Below are positions 665 through 5,949 of a stretch of DNA of 5,949 nt, in pieces. The notes beneath the pieces are model-generated. The model had not been told where the DNA came from. It saw only the letters and a program-made list of their open reading frames with translations, and did not search any database. The first letter of the stretch is position 1. Each line of letters starts with the position of its first letter. Source of the DNA: a virus; IMG/VR virus record IMGVR_UViG_3300045988_009401. One strand, written 5' to 3'. Both the position numbers and the translations under genes were made by a program.

Positions 665-1558
665 TTATTTTCTCCTTCCTGCACCGCCACCGGCTTTGTT
701 CCTGTTGCCTGTGATGTTGTCGAGTCCGTGGCCGCTTCTTACGTTGTCCATGGCTTTGTTTACGTTTCCCCTTAATTTTTTGCCTTCTTTTCTTCCTGCT
801 CCTACGGCGTCGTTGATCGCGTTGCCTGTTTTACTGCCGATTTTGGACAGTGTTTCCTGCAATCCAAGCGGTGTCATTCCTGTACTGCTTAACATCTGAT
901 TCCAGCTTTGCGCGGCGTTGTACCAGTCACTTTGCGACCAGCTTTCACTTGAATAGGAGTTAGGCACGAAACCGGATGCTCTGCTTACTCCCAGCGCACT
1001 TGACGATGGTGCACCCATGCTTGCGCCTGAGATCGTTCCTGCGCTGCCTCCCGGCGTGCTTGCGCCGCCGTTCTGGAATGCTAATATAGGATTAAGCCCT
1101 GCTTTTTTCATGTCTTCTACGGCCCTCTGATATGCCGTGTTGGACATGTGTTCTTGCCATTCCCTATCTTTCATGGCTTCTGTGCTGTTAAAATTCATTG
1201 CTGCCGCGTTTTCGATGTGGTTATATATTCCCTGCATGATTGCGCCTAGGGTGTTATAACCCATCTGCTCCAGCATAGACCTTTGGTTAAATTGGCTCTG
1301 TCGTGCTCCTTCTGCGCCCTGGTATTGGTATGCACCTTTCAGATACTGCATTACTAGTTCGTCATTGGTTCCGGATTTGCTCATGCTTAGGCTTTGCCCG
1401 CCGCCCTGCTGTGTGCTTCCTCCCTGGCTCTGGCTTTGTCCTACCTGACCCCATGCACCGAATGCGCTTCCCAGTGATCCTATCGCATTTCCTACGGTTC
1501 CGATTGTTCCGGCCACTTTTCCGATTGTTCCCAGTGCTCCTAATAGTGATAGTGCCAT
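665..1558 (-). CDS. VP2: Minor capsid / DNA pilot-like protein (gokushovirus VP2-like), 297 aa, Gly- and Gln-rich.
   Basis: The ORF lies immediately downstream of VP1, which is the canonical gokushovirus VP1-VP2 order. It starts with ATG at 1558..1556. The composition is Gly/Ser/Gln-rich and low in complexity, as expected for a VP2/pilot protein. The stop is TAA at 667..665. Confidence 0.7.
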   Translation of the reverse strand: MALSLLGALGTIGKVAGTIGTVGNAIGSLGSAFGAWGQVGQSQSQGGSTQQGGGQSLSMSKSGTNDELVMQYLKGAYQYQGAEGARQSQFNQRSMLEQMGYNTLGAIMQGIYNHIENAAAMNFNSTEAMKDREWQEHMSNTAYQRAVEDMKKAGLNPILAFQNGGASTPGGSAGTISGASMGAPSSSALGVSRASGFVPNSYSSESWSQSDWYNAAQSWNQMLSSTGMTPLGLQETLSKIGSKTGNAINDAVGAGRKEGKKLRGNVNKAMDNVRSGHGLDNITGNRNKAGGGAGRRK

Positions 1559-1597: not shown

Positions 1598-3262
1598 TTA
1601 CAGCTTATACAGTCCCGGCACGCTATAAAGCGGCATTCTGCGCGTGGTATTGTTTGCTACGCGGATTGCACCGAAAAATTGTGGTTCATTCTGTTCGATC
1701 AGTGTTCTTGCAATCTCTGCTTTTCCTTCTACCATCCATTCTTGCGACAGTGTAGGAACGGTTGCGTAGTTATCAGCGTAGTGCCAGAAGTCCAACGTAC
1801 CTTCTGCGTTGCTTCTCATAAGGCCGCTAACGCGGTTCGGTTTCATCCGGTAGTCTGCCCATGCTTCCTGATAGCCGAATGTCTCTTCGTCGGTCGCATC
1901 ACCTGTGAGCATGATCTCCTTCTTTTTTACCGGCTGTTCGCCTAGATTTGCAAACTGCGGCACGTAATAGTCTAGCCTGTCTTGTCTGCTCCAAAAGCGC
2001 TCAAGACCCTGCTGATAGCTGTGATTGTGTCTCACACATGCAACGCCAATTACGAAACCGTGCTCTTCAAAACTTTTTGTGAAAGAGCTTTCGTTGATAG
2101 GTGTAACGGACATTGCGCCTGTTTCACCGATAGGCGTGTCGTTGTTTGCCTGTTGGCCGCTGGTCTGCACGATCTGGTTGATGTTGACATGATATCTGCC
2201 TCCGCCTAGATACTCAGGCACCTGTACCGTTTTATCCGAAATGACAACGTCCCAAATTGCCTGTACCTGCTCACGATATCTGGAACCGCCCCGTGCCAGC
2301 GCCTCATAGTACTGTTGCACGCTGATGGCCTGTCGTAACTGGTTGACAGTTGTTTTTGCTCCTGTTGCTGTTTTGTCTCCTGTAAGATTTACGTACAGAT
2401 TGCCTTGATTTACTTGTGTTCCGCCTGATGTTGTTGCGCCTGTTACTGTTGCCGCACTGCCGCCGCCGCCGTCAATTGTACCTGTTGCAAATCCACTACC
2501 GTTCATGAAGATTGTGCCTTTTGGGTTCAGTCCGGCTAGATCTCTTAATTCTACCGGGTACAATCCACCTAACTGAATTGTCACCTCTGGTCCACGCTGA
2601 GGATAAGGTAAACAGGATGTGAAATAGTCATGAAACTTGTTCACCGGTAAAAGATTACCGCCTGTTACCGCTTCCTGCAGTTCTTTTTCCATCGTGTCTT
2701 TTTCGCCGGTGCTCATGGCGTATATCACATCTTCATCGTCACTTTTCAGGACTGCAGCGTTGCCTACGTTTTCGTCCCTGAAGAACTCGTTCCAGATTTT
2801 CACATACGCTCTGATAGGCAGTGCGTTGATGCTGAAAGGCTTTTTCACCTTCGTAGGTACGCCCATGTAGTCCAGAATGGACTTTTCATCCGGTGCCGGT
2901 TTTTCATTCGTCCCGTTGATTTTGATTTGCGGTACCGTGTAGTTTTTTGTTGGCATCCACGGCCTTTCTTCCACTTCGCCCATGAAATGCTTGAAATTGT
3001 CCCACAGGATCCGGTTAGGACAGTAGAAATAATAGAAATCGATAAAGCTATCGTCCATTACCGGATATTTGGGAGTCGTCATACGGATAATGGCCTGTGT
3101 GTCAACGCTGAACGTATCGCCCGGTAGGACTTCATCCACGTAAAATGGAATTAGTTTTCCTGCGTCAAATGTGGTCAGGATAATTTGGTCTCGATTGAAT
3201 CGCGTTCGGCTTGCTTTCATCTGTGGAATTTGATTAAAATGCCGCTCGTTATTCCTGTTCAT
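1598..3262 (-). CDS. VP1: Major capsid protein VP1 (Microviridae F-like, gokushovirus type), 554 aa.
   Basis: The N-terminal region reads RFNRDQIILTTFDAGKLIPFYVDEVLPGDTF, matching the conserved gokushovirus VP1 signature (TTFDAG.LIP...DEVLPGDTF). The length is typical. The start is ATG at 3262..3260, preceded by GGAAGGAGA eight nt upstream. The stop is TAA at 1600..1598. Confidence 0.95.
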   Translation of the reverse strand: MNRNNERHFNQIPQMKASRTRFNRDQIILTTFDAGKLIPFYVDEVLPGDTFSVDTQAIIRMTTPKYPVMDDSFIDFYYFYCPNRILWDNFKHFMGEVEERPWMPTKNYTVPQIKINGTNEKPAPDEKSILDYMGVPTKVKKPFSINALPIRAYVKIWNEFFRDENVGNAAVLKSDDEDVIYAMSTGEKDTMEKELQEAVTGGNLLPVNKFHDYFTSCLPYPQRGPEVTIQLGGLYPVELRDLAGLNPKGTIFMNGSGFATGTIDGGGGSAATVTGATTSGGTQVNQGNLYVNLTGDKTATGAKTTVNQLRQAISVQQYYEALARGGSRYREQVQAIWDVVISDKTVQVPEYLGGGRYHVNINQIVQTSGQQANNDTPIGETGAMSVTPINESSFTKSFEEHGFVIGVACVRHNHSYQQGLERFWSRQDRLDYYVPQFANLGEQPVKKKEIMLTGDATDEETFGYQEAWADYRMKPNRVSGLMRSNAEGTLDFWHYADNYATVPTLSQEWMVEGKAEIARTLIEQNEPQFFGAIRVANNTTRRMPLYSVPGLYKL

Positions 3263-3647
3263 TTTTCATGTCTCCTTCCTTCGCTGCTTCTTCCGGTGCT
3301 TTCTCCTGCATTTCCTGCAGTGCCAGTGCGTTTGCCTGCGCTGTTGCGATCATTCTGTGATACTCGTGGATGTTCTGCGGCCATTCCGTGATATCTACCT
3401 CTGTGCCGTCCAGCGCTCCCTGTGAAAGACTCTGCATAAACTGCGGGTCAAATGATGCTTTTCGGACAATGTTTTTAATGTCGCATTCATCTGCATAGCT
3501 CTCGATTTCGCCCTGGATGTCGATGCTTTCAGTCTCCTGAAGGTATTCCTCATTTTCTTTGTTTTTTGCCCATACGTATTGTTTACGCTGGGTTTCGCCT
3601 GATGCAGAAAAGAGGGGCGTGCGCCCCTCTTCATATCTCTTATTCAT
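3249..3647 (-). CDS. VP3-like protein (putative internal scaffolding protein), acidic, about 132 aa from the ATG at 3647. The track's longer form starts at TTG 3707.
   Basis: The ORF lies immediately upstream of VP1 and overlaps it by 14 nt. It has an acidic, Glu-rich C-terminus. The ATG at 3647..3645 has the SD GGGAGGG eight nt upstream and sits 2 nt after the stop of the preceding 79-aa gene. The 152-aa form in the ORF track begins with TTG (3707..3705) and would overlap the upstream gene by 68 nt. I do not recognise any motif in it. Confidence 0.5.
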   Translation of the reverse strand: MNKRYEEGRTPLFSASGETQRKQYVWAKNKENEEYLQETESIDIQGEIESYADECDIKNIVRKASFDPQFMQSLSQGALDGTEVDITEWPQNIHEYHRMIATAQANALALQEMQEKAPEEAAKEGDMKNEQE

Positions 3648-3879
3648 GCGGCTTGCCCTCCCATGCCTTTTCCTTGTCGTTCTGAAATTCGCCGGTTTCG
3701 TCTTCAAACTGTGCCAGCTTGTAACCCACGTAATCGGCTGGGGACTGCCCGATGAACGTGTTCTCGTCCTTCTGCATTACGTTGCACATCCGTGCGAATG
3801 TTTCATTGTTTTTGCTTTCACCTACCCATGCGTAGCACTTCGCTACTTTGTCGTAGATACCATAGTAATTGCTAATCAT
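3640..3879 (-). CDS. Hypothetical acidic protein, 79 aa.
   Basis: ATG at 3879..3877. Lys codons of the upstream gene form an AAAGGA SD 7 nt upstream. The stop is TAA at 3642..3640. The gene is tightly coupled to its neighbours. It has no transmembrane segment and no recognisable motif. Confidence 0.5.
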   Translation of the reverse strand: MISNYYGIYDKVAKCYAWVGESKNNETFARMCNVMQKDENTFIGQSPADYVGYKLAQFEDETGEFQNDKEKAWEGKPHE

Positions 3880-4018
3880 CTTTTTTTCCTTTCTTTTAGA
3901 GCCGAATCCCGCCGCGCATAGGTTTCTGGCTCAAGTTGATGCTTTTGGTTTTCCGCGCGGTTACGTTAAACATGCGCTTATCTTTGTTGCCGTTCATGAC
4001 TTTACGATGTCGTGCCAT
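3872..4018 (-). CDS. Small, highly basic Arg/Lys-rich peptide, 48 aa. It is a candidate DNA-binding/packaging protein, analogous to phiX174 J or gokushovirus ORF8.
   Basis: This ORF is absent from the ORF track because it is shorter than 60 aa. I translated it by hand as MARHRKVMNGNKDKRMFNVTRRKTKSINLSQKPMRGGIRLKKKGKKDD. ATG at 4018..4016 with a strong SD, GAGGAGAGGG, 7 nt upstream. The stop TAG at 3874..3872 overlaps the next gene's start region. It fills the otherwise empty 122-nt gap between two genes. Confidence 0.6.
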
Positions 4019-4229
4019 TATAGTACCCTCTCCTCATCAGCTCTAGCTCGATAGCGTTGGCAAAGTTTTTGCACTGCCAGATCTCATCAATCATTTTCTT
4101 TGCGGTTTCTTTTTCGTTAATTTCTCGCAGGAGCTTGTAATCGTTTTGGATTTCTTTATATTTCTTCTCAAGCAGTTCGGATAAATTTTTTTCGGTCTGG
4201 TCTCTGACATTCCATGGTTTTGCAATCAT
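4002..4229 (-). CDS. Hypothetical protein, 75 aa, predicted helical/coiled-coil, Lys/Glu-rich.
   Basis: ATG at 4229..4227 with SD AAGGAG 9 nt upstream. The stop is TAA at 4004..4002. It is tightly packed against its neighbours. No motif recognised. Confidence 0.5.
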   Translation of the reverse strand: MIAKPWNVRDQTEKNLSELLEKKYKEIQNDYKLLREINEKETAKKMIDEIWQCKNFANAIELELMRRGYYNGTTS

Positions 4230-4235
4230 CTTTGT

Positions 4236-4352
4236 TTACTCCTTTTCGTTCGGCTGGTCGTGTAGGGCATGGTAGATCTCGTCCAGCTTTTCCAGAATCT
4301 GCATCATGATTTTGATAGCCTGTTTGACGTCTTTAATACTGATAAGAGCCAT
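4236..4352 (-). CDS. Small hypothetical peptide, 38 aa (MALISIKDVKQAIKIMMQILEKLDEIYHALHDQPNEKE). Alternatively a 65-aa form from the ATG at 4433, which overlaps the peptidase gene.
   Basis: The ATG at 4352..4350 lies 4 nt after the peptidase stop codon (4359..4357), with SD AAGGGGGT 8 nt upstream. The 65-aa form in the track starts at the ATG at 4433, which sits inside the peptidase coding sequence in another frame. Confidence 0.4.
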   Translation of the reverse strand: MALISIKDVKQAIKIMMQILEKLDEIYHALHDQPNEKE

Positions 4353-4356
4353 TTGC

Positions 4357-4746
4357 TTACACCCCCTTTCTGTATGTTTTGGTGCGCGTGTCGATGTGCA
4401 CCCATGTATTGTATACGATGATGCCGCATCCATTTGGGATGATTTTCTTCAGTTTGTTGGCAATTTCTTTTGCGGTCATGCCATCAACTCGAATGTCTGC
4501 GGCCATTCCCCGCATGTGATATGAGTATTTTGCACCGCCCACCGCTTTATTCCTTGTCGGTGTCCGGTATCCGCTGTTTATGTGTACCGGCTTTCCAACT
4601 TGGTTTCTGAGAATGTCCAGAATCGATACAAGGTAGTCATCTATGAAAACTATCTGAGAACCGTCTCTGCAAGCAAATTCCTTTACTTTGAAGTGCTTTC
4701 CAACGTTTTCGTTTGCGTCTGTGTCCATGATATAGCATTTAATCAT
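4357..4746 (-). CDS. Zinc metallopeptidase of the Peptidase_M15_3 / M15A family (VanY/YcbK-like peptidoglycan peptidase, a putative endolysin). About 129 aa from the ATG at 4746; the track form starts at TTG 4755.
   Basis: The translation contains the family signature SGYRTPTRNKAVGGAKYSYHMRGMAADI ... WVHIDTR. That is an SxHxxGxAxD zinc-binding block plus a C-terminal HxD/H ligand, preceded by FACRDG. The ATG at 4746..4744 follows AAAGGA. The track ORF starts 9 nt upstream at TTG 4755..4753. The stop is TAA at 4359..4357. Confidence 0.85.
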   Translation of the reverse strand: MIKCYIMDTDANENVGKHFKVKEFACRDGSQIVFIDDYLVSILDILRNQVGKPVHINSGYRTPTRNKAVGGAKYSYHMRGMAADIRVDGMTAKEIANKLKKIIPNGCGIIVYNTWVHIDTRTKTYRKGV

Positions 4747-4751
4747 TCTTG

Positions 4752-4970
4752 TCAATTCCTTTTTACTACAGCTACGTCTTCTAAGAATTTTTTTTCTACC
4801 TTGTACAGTCCATCTTCGTCTAGCTCATTTCCTAACTCGAATGCGTATTTTCTGCAGATGATTTTATCACTCTTCCTGTATAGCTTTTCGTAGTTGTACT
4901 TTTTTCCCATCATGTATCCGAAAAAATCGAGTTCTATATAATTTTGTTCGCGCACGTAGACTTTTTTCAT
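4752..4970 (-). CDS. Hypothetical protein, 72 aa, the first gene downstream of the promoter.
   Basis: ATG at 4970..4968 with GGAAGG SD 8 nt upstream, lying 33 nt downstream of the predicted -10. The stop is TGA at 4754..4752, 6 nt before the peptidase ATG. The protein is Lys/Tyr/Glu-rich with no transmembrane segment and no recognised motif. Confidence 0.5.
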   Translation of the reverse strand: MKKVYVREQNYIELDFFGYMMGKKYNYEKLYRKSDKIICRKYAFELGNELDEDGLYKVEKKFLEDVAVVKRN

Positions 4971-5002
4971 GGTGTTTACCTTCCTTTCTTTTCTGTGACT
5001 TA

Positions 5003-5031
5003 ATTATATCACATGTCAATACCTTTTTCAA
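5003..5031 (-). promoter_or_regulatory. Sigma70-type promoter on the minus strand that drives the gene cassette.
   Basis: On the minus strand the -35 is TTGAAA (5031..5026). A 17-nt spacer ending in TGA supplies the TGn of an extended -10. The -10 is a perfect TATAAT (5008..5003). The predicted start lies near 4996, and the first ATG is at 4970 behind a GGAAGG SD. Confidence 0.55.
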
Positions 5032-5076
5032 TCTTTTCGTCTCTTTGTAATAATTTGTAACCTTTCCTAGGACAGG

Positions 5077-5160
5077 AGCGCCGTTAGACTCCCGCCCTCA
5101 GGCGCTCATTTTGATAAGACCGGCAAGGCCGGTCAGACTGTCGGCGCGCTCCGTCAGACT
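5077..5160. repeat. GC-rich cluster of inverted and direct repeats upstream of the promoter, operator-like.
   Basis: An inverted repeat gagcgcc (5077..5083) / ggcgctc (5101..5107) has a 17-bp spacer. A second inverted repeat gaccggc-aag-gccggtc spans 5118..5134. Direct repeats GTCAGACT occur at 5132..5139 and 5153..5160, 21 bp apart, and a related GTTAGACT at 5083..5090. Confidence 0.6.
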
Positions 5161-5196
5161 TTGTCGTCTCCGCTCACCCTACTTTATTTGCCGTTC

Positions 5197-5352
5197 TTTC
5201 AACAGTTTCCACCGACTTTTCAACATTTCAACATTGTTAAACTTTATCACAACAGAGTGTTTCAACATTTCAACAAGTTTTCAACAAATCTTTCAACGTT
5301 TGTTTTTACCTTTTTCTAACGTTTTAACGTTCAAATTTATCTGTTTTCAACT
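5197..5352. repeat. Iteron-like array of about 9 TTTCAAC(A/G) octamers.
   Basis: TTTCAACA occurs at 5197, 5218 and 5226 (a tandem pair), at 5260 and 5268 (a tandem pair), and at 5279. TTTCAACG occurs at 5291, degenerate TTTTAACG and TTCAAA at 5322-5336, and TTTCAACT at 5345. The pattern is not CRISPR-like: the units are 8 bp and there are no spacers. Confidence 0.7.
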
Positions 5353-5397
5353 TTTCCACGTACTCTACTACTACGGCTACAACAAGTTATATAATAT

Positions 5398-5443
5398 TAC
5401 GCGTGCGCGTGTGCGCGCGTCTACGCGTGCGCGTGTGCGCGCG
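5398..5443. repeat. Tandem direct repeat, 2 x 21 nt, of perfectly alternating purine-pyrimidine CG/TG sequence (Z-DNA-prone) separated by tct.
   Basis: acgcgtgcgcgtgtgcgcgcg appears at 5399..5419 and again at 5423..5443. Each copy alternates Pu-Py strictly over 21-22 nt. The AT-rich ttatataatatt lies immediately 5' at 5387..5398. Confidence 0.8.
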
Positions 5444-5481
5444 AATAAAGCCCAGTACCTTACTTGATAGGTACTGGGCTT
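5443..5481 (-). terminator. 13-bp hairpin 11 nt after the VP4 stop. It is a candidate terminator and/or an origin hairpin.
   Basis: aagcccagtacct (5448..5460) and aggtactgggctt (5469..5481) form a perfect stem with an 8-nt loop, tacttgat. On the minus-strand RNA the stem is followed by UAUUCG, which gives a weak U-run, UUUAUU. The loop together with the adjacent base reads ACTTGATA on the + strand. Confidence 0.4.
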
Positions 5482-5492
5482 GGTGACACCGA

Positions 5493-5949
5493 TTAGAGTA
5501 TACCGCTTTTTTTCGTTTGTTTTTTGGTAACGCGTTCTTTTGCTTCTAATTGTGTTTTGTAATCTTGTCCTTCCAACTGCAGTCTTTTCTGCTCTATGGC
5601 TTTTCTCTGTCTGTTTTGCTTGATCCTCCACAGCCTTTCCGGGTTTTCTTTTTCCATCATCTTTTCATAGTATCGCGGTATTTGCGCCTTTTTGCCATTA
5701 GTGCATTGAATGTAGCCTTGTCTCCATATTTCTTCTTTGTGCTCTTGATAGTAAAGATCACCCAGTCCCGGCTTAAGTGACATACACGCGAACGGTTTTT
5801 GTTGACCTAGATCATAATATGCATTTGCTTTCTTTCCGTCAATTTCATACATTTTTTTTGTAACATACCCTGCAACATATCTATATGTTTCAGGTGTTGC
5901 TTGTGCGATCTGAATTTGACCGTTTCCCCATAGCTTTTCTAGCCATTCA
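5493..5949 (-). CDS. VP4: Replication initiator VP4, C-terminal part. Positions 5851..5949 duplicate 1..99, so this is the same gene as feature 1..569 read through the circular junction. The stop codon TAA is at 5495..5493.
   Basis: The 119-aa ORF 5493..5852 of the track extends in frame, with no stop, through the 99-bp terminal redundancy. It contains KPFACMSLKPGLG, typical of Microviridae Rep C-termini. The ATG at 5852 that the track used as a start is an internal Met. Confidence 0.88.
   Translation of the reverse strand, partial: EWLEKLWGNGQIQIAQATPETYRYVAGYVTKKMYEIDGKKANAYYDLGQQKPFACMSLKPGLGDLYYQEHKEEIWRQGYIQCTNGKKAQIPRYYEKMMEKENPERLWRIKQNRQRKAIEQKRLQLEGQDYKTQLEAKERVTKKQTKKSGIL
5851..5949. 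repeat. 99-bp terminal redundancy, an exact copy of 1..99. It marks the circular genome closure.
   Basis: I compared the two ends base by base: 5851..5949 is identical to 1..99. Confidence 0.97.

Follow-up and report, generated by a model that had tools for sequence, protein, structure and literature searches.

The stretch of DNA analysed here (the window, 5949 nt) carries a 99-nt terminal direct repeat, positions 1–99 being the same as 5851–5949, and therefore represents a complete circular genome of 5850 nt. Every gene of this genome is encoded on the minus strand, to which the gene coordinates below refer unless marked (+). Taking as gokushovirus-type a circle of ~4.5–6.5 kb with the VP1–VP5 set on one strand, we found the window to be a gokushovirus-type member of the Microviridae, in agreement with an earlier note made from the letters of this DNA that had placed the gene discussed here in a microvirus. 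The set comprises VP1 (major capsid protein, 1598–3262; Phage_F, E = 8e-135), VP2 (pilot protein, 665–1558; E = 3e-107), the VP3 scaffold (3249–3707; Chlamy_scaf), VP5 (3640–3879; Phage_ORF5) and rep (VP4), which runs from about 662 to 1 and then from 5850 to 5493. Since rep crosses the junction of the circle, mechanical ORF lists give only a 119-aa piece of its C-terminus. A J-like basic protein of 40 aa is encoded at 3896–4018. The relatives found by Megablast, gut gokushoviruses from the faeces of pigs, humans and monkeys, show 83–86% identity over 73–92% of the genome.

Just past the rep stop lies a terminator-like 13-bp perfect hairpin followed by a T-run (5448..5481, minus strand), which stands between rep and the peptidase cassette promoter. 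This near-consensus sigma-70/sigmaA promoter (5003..5031, minus strand; TTGAAA, a 17-nt spacer and TG-n-TATAAT, with 11/12 matches and an extended −10) is predicted by consensus match and would head a string of genes beginning with orf72, the peptidase and orf38. The 72-aa product of orf72 (4752..4970), directly upstream of the peptidase and preceded by a strong Shine–Dalgarno sequence (AAAGGAAGG), has no transmembrane (TM) segment. It is present in only one of 88 relatives, unrelated small ORFs filling the slot elsewhere, and this is a hypervariable accessory position. The 38-aa orf38 (MALISIKDVKQAIKIMMQILEKLDEIYHALHDQPNEKE; 4236..4352) starts 4 nt past the peptidase stop and has a very strong Shine–Dalgarno sequence (AAAGGGGGTG). 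The sizes given for the neighbouring proteins in the earlier note stand for those of 72, 38, 75 and 79 aa, whilst the one listed as 48 aa is actually 40 aa.

The maximal peptidase ORF (4357–4755) extends to a TTG at 4755 that is merely a mechanical ORF start. The ATG at 4746 is most likely the true start, since an AGGA Shine–Dalgarno motif (4757..4760) lies 10 nt upstream of it and most gene calls of homologues are 129 aa long. So defined, the gene (4357..4746) encodes 129 aa plus a stop, a single-domain Peptidase_M15_3/M15A protein of 14.6 kDa with a pI of 9.6 and a charge of +9. The earlier note had read an M15 peptidase with a full signature at 4357–4755, and a Pfam search bore this out, the protein matching the whole PF08291 (Peptidase_M15_3) profile (1–108 of 108; 84.6 bits against a cut-off of 23.2; E = 6.2e-24) with all three motifs found. 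It also matched PHROG 894 ‘endolysin’ (E = 7.8e-45) and, more weakly, PF05951 (Peptidase_M15_2; E = 1.3e-9), a related domain that is found in the Escherichia coli L,D-endopeptidase MepK (YcbK, Peptidase_M15_2/DUF882). MepK is an exported housekeeping enzyme, of which the microviral peptidase is not an orthologue, its score against the NCBIfam MepK model (E = 2e-14, 53.8 bits) being far under the equivalog cut-off of 185 bits.

The active-site motifs were located by HMMER alignment to the zinc DD-peptidase of Streptomyces albus (1LBU), a bacterial enzyme of 213 aa that is secreted and bears an additional N-terminal peptidoglycan-binding domain, and the substrate specificity of which may differ from that of the microviral peptidase. 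R61, H77 and D84 pair with R138, H154 and D161 of 1LBU. The SGYR motif (S58-G-Y-R61, codons 4564–4575) thus supplies the counterpart of the substrate-carboxylate-binding R138, the SxHxxGxAxD motif (SYHMRGMAAD, S75 to D84, codons 4495–4524) the predicted Zn ligands H77 and D84, and the WVHID motif (W115-V-H117-I-D119, codons 4390–4404), a (W/F)xH motif, the predicted third ligand H117 and the conserved acidic D119. These are the motifs set out for LysPM1, an experimentally characterised single-domain M15_3 endolysin, the description of which also defined the (W/F)xH motif and explained what R138 and the acidic residue do (PMC13461873). S58, R61, N66, S75, H77, G80, A82, D84, H117 and D119 show no variation in any of 56 diverse homologues or 109 unique microviral copies, so that the proposed His/Asp/His triad survives alignment, and W115 is likewise invariant in the 109 microviral copies. 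Amongst these copies dN/dS is ~0.14, i.e. the gene is under purifying selection. The protein has the LAS/Hedgehog-DD-peptidase fold; a first structure prediction, from a shallow alignment of near-identical sequences, reached a pLDDT of 60 and was left unused. From its sequence we assign the gene product as a Zn peptidoglycan peptidase of the M15_3/M15A type with an intact active site and with predicted hydrolytic activity. The M15 family spans DD-carboxypeptidases and LD-endopeptidases, and the predicted target of cleavage is a stem-peptide bond.

Such genes had been described in the earlier note as uncommon and only sporadically seen in microviruses, a view that the search results contradict. 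At E ≤ 1e-5 we recovered 2194 protein clusters, the best 120 of which were >80% identical and nearly all on contigs of ~6 kb or less. In a set of 80 relatives selected by VP1 (at least 72% identical), and hence unbiased with respect to the peptidase, 77 carried the gene, including 71/71 contigs of at least 5400 nt. Within this clade of gut gokushoviruses, which is very abundant, the peptidase is fixed. Nor is it new. Roux et al. (2012; PMC3394797) found an M15_3 peptidase in six Alpavirinae and in five Gokushovirinae of the human gut; they inferred its horizontal acquisition, noted that it was linked to Faecalibacterium and that its homologues lay next to holins, and suggested that it acts as an endolysin and that the hosts are Gram-positive. 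In GenBank relatives it is annotated as ‘peptidase M15’ (KX513876) or ‘similar to peptidase’ (MG945383, MG945430). Against these the window shows 81–94% protein identity and 83–86% genome nucleotide identity, the same position after rep and the same Faecalibacterium/Clostridiales affinity, and nothing essential differs. Peptidases are regarded as the chief lysis-associated accessory genes of microviruses (Kirchberger, 2020, 2022), a peptidase region of ~700 nt is described as recombining between families (Kirchberger and co-workers), and marine microvirus isolates with M15 peptidases are on record. As an established, recurrent accessory gene the peptidase by itself thus adds nothing new, the window being one more member of a published group. 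Base composition, which the earlier note had read as a sign of horizontal acquisition, the gene being ‘much more AT-rich than the capsid genes’, gives no indication of a recent transfer: the G+C content is 44.4% for the peptidase, 45.2% for the genome, 47.7% for VP1 and about 40% for rep, and the GC3 of the peptidase is 52% as compared with 51% for VP1.

The closest homologue in a dsDNA phage is the endolysin of Faecalibacterium phage FP_Toutatis (46% identity), which is directly adjoined by two TM proteins. When a 10-sequence alignment was searched against species-representative genomes, ~75 of the 80 nearest homologues were from Bacillota/Clostridia. A small TM ORF was present within 1.2 kb in 62 of the 73 homologues examined, mostly adjacent, and signal-like N-termini in four. 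Judged by these matches, the cellular sequences closest to the peptidase are endolysins of Clostridia prophages with putative holins beside them, and its lineage traces back to the single-domain endolysins carried by (pro)phages of Clostridia, which makes a Clostridia-class bacterium the probable host. The Shine–Dalgarno sequences of the cassette are strong and purine-rich, and these, together with the extended −10 of the promoter, would fit a Firmicute-like host. A VP1 search of 185,579 species genomes found no prophage or host. The single-domain M15_3 enzymes of tailed phages (FP_Toutatis, LysPM1 and ST79) have the same domain, a length of 116–139 aa, no cell-wall-binding domain, and the SxHxxGxAxD and (W/F)xH-x-D motifs in common with the microviral protein. 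For two of them, LysPM1 of Proteus phage Homer (PMC13461873) and the endolysin of Burkholderia phage ST79, Zn-dependent muralytic activity was demonstrated by experiment, whilst no experiment on any microviral peptidase was found in the literature searched.

Enzymes of the FP_Toutatis, LysPM1 and ST79 type adjoin TM holin-type proteins, whereas the microviral gene has no such neighbour. Every ORF of at least 20 aa was scanned in all frames by the Kyte–Doolittle method, with KD19 ≥ 1.5 taken as TM-like, and on the coding strand of the window none was TM-like, the VP2 N-terminus excepted. The same absence of a TM partner was seen in eight GenBank relatives, in 80 peptidase-selected IMG/VR relatives and, at a laxer threshold and again excepting the VP2 N-terminus, in about 144 related genomes, so that a missed holin on the coding strand can be set aside. 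The peptidase itself has neither a signal peptide nor a TM segment (KD19 maximum 1.09), and its N-terminus (MIKCYIMDTDANENVGKH) is polar and part of the predicted folded domain (pLDDT 98); N-terminal signal peptides do occur in 21 of 150 representatives of the wider family. There is hence no small membrane protein encoded beside the peptidase, as in a canonical holin–endolysin cassette, and no signal peptide or signal-anchor-release (SAR) domain on it, as in secreted or SAR endolysins. On the complementary strand ~30 hydrophobic ORFs are spread over the whole genome because that strand is T-rich. One of them, a 72-aa antisense ORF at 4306–4524 (+), was considered as a gene and rejected, since it is open at full length in 22 of 127 relatives and interrupted by internal stops in 31. 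What the earlier note had said of the lack of a holin, pinholin or signal-anchor neighbour thus applies to the coding strand and extends to the related genomes. Holins were not surveyed by Roux et al. (2012; PMC3394797), and the contribution made here to the published picture is the documented absence of a TM partner over about 144 genomes, with the gene fixed in the clade. How the peptidase would reach the murein without a holin, as asked in the earlier note, is a real question, and one that has already been recognised.

The reading that we favour, and consider rather probable, is that the peptidase is a soluble Zn endolysin of the phage, acting after another factor has breached the membrane, in a host that is probably a member of the Clostridia. 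The enzyme would be made in the cytoplasm and accumulate there in soluble form, another factor would compromise the cytoplasmic membrane late in infection, and the breach would let the peptidase reach the murein and cut stem-peptide bonds at the end of infection. The absence of holin, pinholin, SAR domain and signal sequence, i.e. of the canonical endolysin route, is a point against an endolysin, and because of it the murein would most likely be reached only after membrane damage. The membrane factor might be a core exit mechanism shared with relatives that have no peptidase, or the glycine-zipper N-terminus of VP2.

The missing export route would suit a peptidase that is not lytic, serving in wall remodelling, superinfection exclusion or release through host-controlled autolysis, or one that is a decaying passenger, and persistence in a carrier state is possible for microviruses (Kirchberger, 2020). 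We regard this as very improbable. Decay is contradicted by the strength of purifying selection, by catalytic residues that do not vary and by the fixation of the gene in the clade, a murein peptidase in the cytoplasm would be without substrate until released, and the characterised close phage members of the family are all endolysins.

Neither a holin nor an export signal would be needed if the enzyme acted at entry, packaged inside the T = 1 capsid or attached to it and opening a thick monoderm wall at one spot, through which the DNA-delivery tube of VP2 could get to the membrane. Virion-associated wall enzymes have precedents in P5 of phage phi6 and P15 of PRD1, and like phi6 P5 an entry enzyme may give additional help at lysis. 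Dual use of one enzyme as a virion-associated peptidoglycan hydrolase and an endolysin has been mentioned for dsRNA phages (PMC10707117). The protein is small and very basic, which makes packaging with the DNA conceivable, its Clostridia-derived homologues suggest a thick-walled host whose wall must be digested, and the gene is fixed in the clade. Its closest relatives, however, are free-standing endolysins in holin–endolysin cassettes and not virion proteins; the gene lies in a non-structural accessory cluster, and no fusion to VP1, VP2 or VP3 occurs in 109 unique copies. Moreover, cassette turnover has replaced the peptidase in an otherwise near-identical genome (MG945781.1, ~85% identical genome-wide, its peptidase at 1386–1766 only 48% identical), an exchange that would be easy for a soluble enzyme and harder for one fitted to a capsid. 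We know of no microvirus that packages an enzyme. We therefore consider an entry function unlikely, and the endolysin role is better supported than either this or a non-lytic function.

Amongst the small proteins of the cassette, orf38 is one candidate for a partner that makes a hole without a TM segment, the other being the 75-aa coiled-coil protein; with either, the peptidase would be a classical endolysin and the partner a new kind of holin substitute. The orf38 product is a strongly amphipathic heptad helix (muH up to 0.64) and not a TM protein, has no match to any family and has been left without annotation in nearly all GenBank records. For most members of the clade to which the window belongs, 1–5 nt separate the peptidase stop from the start of orf38, and intact copies of it occur in 88/88 loci selected by the peptidase and in 78 of 80 relatives selected by VP1. 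This co-occurrence had made it a candidate for a dedicated partner, a status which it loses because it is equally conserved in six gokushoviruses that have no peptidase, and in a different place in the gene order: the peptidase is followed by orf38, the orf75-like gene and the J-like gene in the window (4002–4352), as against orf75-like, orf38 and J-like in the peptidase-less genomes (1617–1969 in one of them, locus L093). In a clade with VP1 ~40% identical, orf38 and the peptidase are 150–417 nt apart. The protein is also acidic (pI 5.5), and its heptads are those expected of a coiled coil, not of a peptide that lyses membranes. A hole made by such a non-TM partner is thus improbable, and orf38 is, from its distribution, a small gene that belongs to the conserved core of this gokushovirus group.

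The six peptidase-less gokushoviruses (VP1 44% identical) have orf38 and the genes for the J-like and orf75-like proteins, as well as the intergenic element described below, with VP5 annotated in five of the six. As they hold the same core small genes, an exit route independent of the peptidase exists in the group, and the peptidase may have been added onto it. A candidate for the membrane lesion that the endolysin reading calls for is the N-terminus of VP2, the ~37 residues of which (MALSLLGALGTIGKVAGTIGTVGNAIGSLGSAFGAWG; 1448..1558) are glycine-rich, hydrophobic and glycine-zipper-like, and form the sole hydrophobic stretch on the coding strand (KD 1.47); a role for it in lysis is speculation. 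In the Dulem-virus clade, which bears the peptidase, a conserved single-TM ORF of 35–69 aa with a basic C-terminus follows immediately after VP2 and overlaps the VP2 stop (2593–2700 in locus L009, 2621–2728 in L234, 2607–2783 in L233 and ~2577–2786 in L232), and its product is a holin- or Sgl-like candidate. The VP2 N-terminus is non-hydrophobic in that clade, the reverse of the clade of the window, where VP2 is hydrophobic and the small TM ORF is missing. This reciprocal pattern points to a membrane role for VP2, but it is only a hint. That the peptidase is a true endolysin without any phage TM holin, its lesion being made by the VP2 glycine zipper or by a small non-TM core protein such as orf38, seems to us doubtful; if true, minimal phages would have a new way of lysing their hosts with two components, the hosts probably being Gram-positive (Clostridia).

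Comparison with the lysis system of phiX174 sets the question in context. The E protein of this phage, a small TM protein encoded by an overprinted gene, blocks MraY and does not itself attack murein enzymatically. E and other single-gene lysis (Sgl) proteins, like the peptidase on the reading favoured here, are lysis solutions of very small genomes without room for a full cassette. Unlike the phiX174 E type, the window encodes a murein hydrolase and has no TM ORF in any coding-strand frame, which speaks against single-gene lysis of that type here; E was also treated in the discussion of Roux et al. (2012; PMC3394797). Reviews still have ssDNA phages lysing via single non-enzymatic proteins, whereas this clade has fixed a murein hydrolase without holin, signal peptide or SAR domain. 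The release mechanism and the suspected Clostridia host would clarify lysis, and perhaps entry, by the smallest DNA phages in thick-walled bacteria. The peptidase, as a compact single-domain lysin of 14.6 kDa, could also serve against gut Firmicutes.

Several further elements of the locus deserve mention. A second promoter-like pair (TTGACA, 17 nt, TATCAT; 11/12 matches) at 4727–4755 (minus strand) overlaps the peptidase start codon, and may be a coding by-product because its −10 hexamer falls in conserved Tyr-Ile-Met codons. The ORF-free stretch 4971–5492 contains a conserved non-coding element (~5261–5393) packed with GTTGAAA-type repeats, which was found in 136 of 148 related loci and which in distant relatives is more conserved than coding DNA (81–82% in MT135259 and MG945382). 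Its position is between VP2 and rep, and its orientation relative to the genes is reversed, in 14 loci of the clade with VP1 ~40% identical. Folding of the element as ssDNA gave no significant structure, and an Rfam search of the window found no family, the sole match being at chance level (E = 0.21). The element could be an origin, a set of iterons or a regulatory region. In 69 of 148 relatives the intergenic repeats encode an intact Lys/Leu-rich, cationic amphipathic ORF of 43–75 aa (MTKIIVQHFVENLLKVLKVLKTRTALK...; e.g. 4854–5012 in locus L022 and 207–374 in L141). This ORF may arise as a side effect of the repeats, or it may be a genuine but polymorphic gene whose product might act on membranes. 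As a partner of the peptidase in the window it was rejected, since stop codons break it and a remnant, VERFVENLLKC followed by a stop, is left at 5265–5297 (minus strand). Directly after the rep hairpin two exact 22-nt copies of TACGCGTGCGCGTGTGCGCGCG (+ strand), 24 nt apart, occupy 5398–5443; the unit is G+C-rich, with alternating purines and pyrimidines, in A+T-rich surroundings. Finally, some relatives (L026, L108, L122 and L144), on contigs of 6.7–10.7 kb, are oversized for microviruses, the first with an unassigned 603-aa ORF at 96–1907, and these may be chimeric assemblies or may carry unusual accessory genes.
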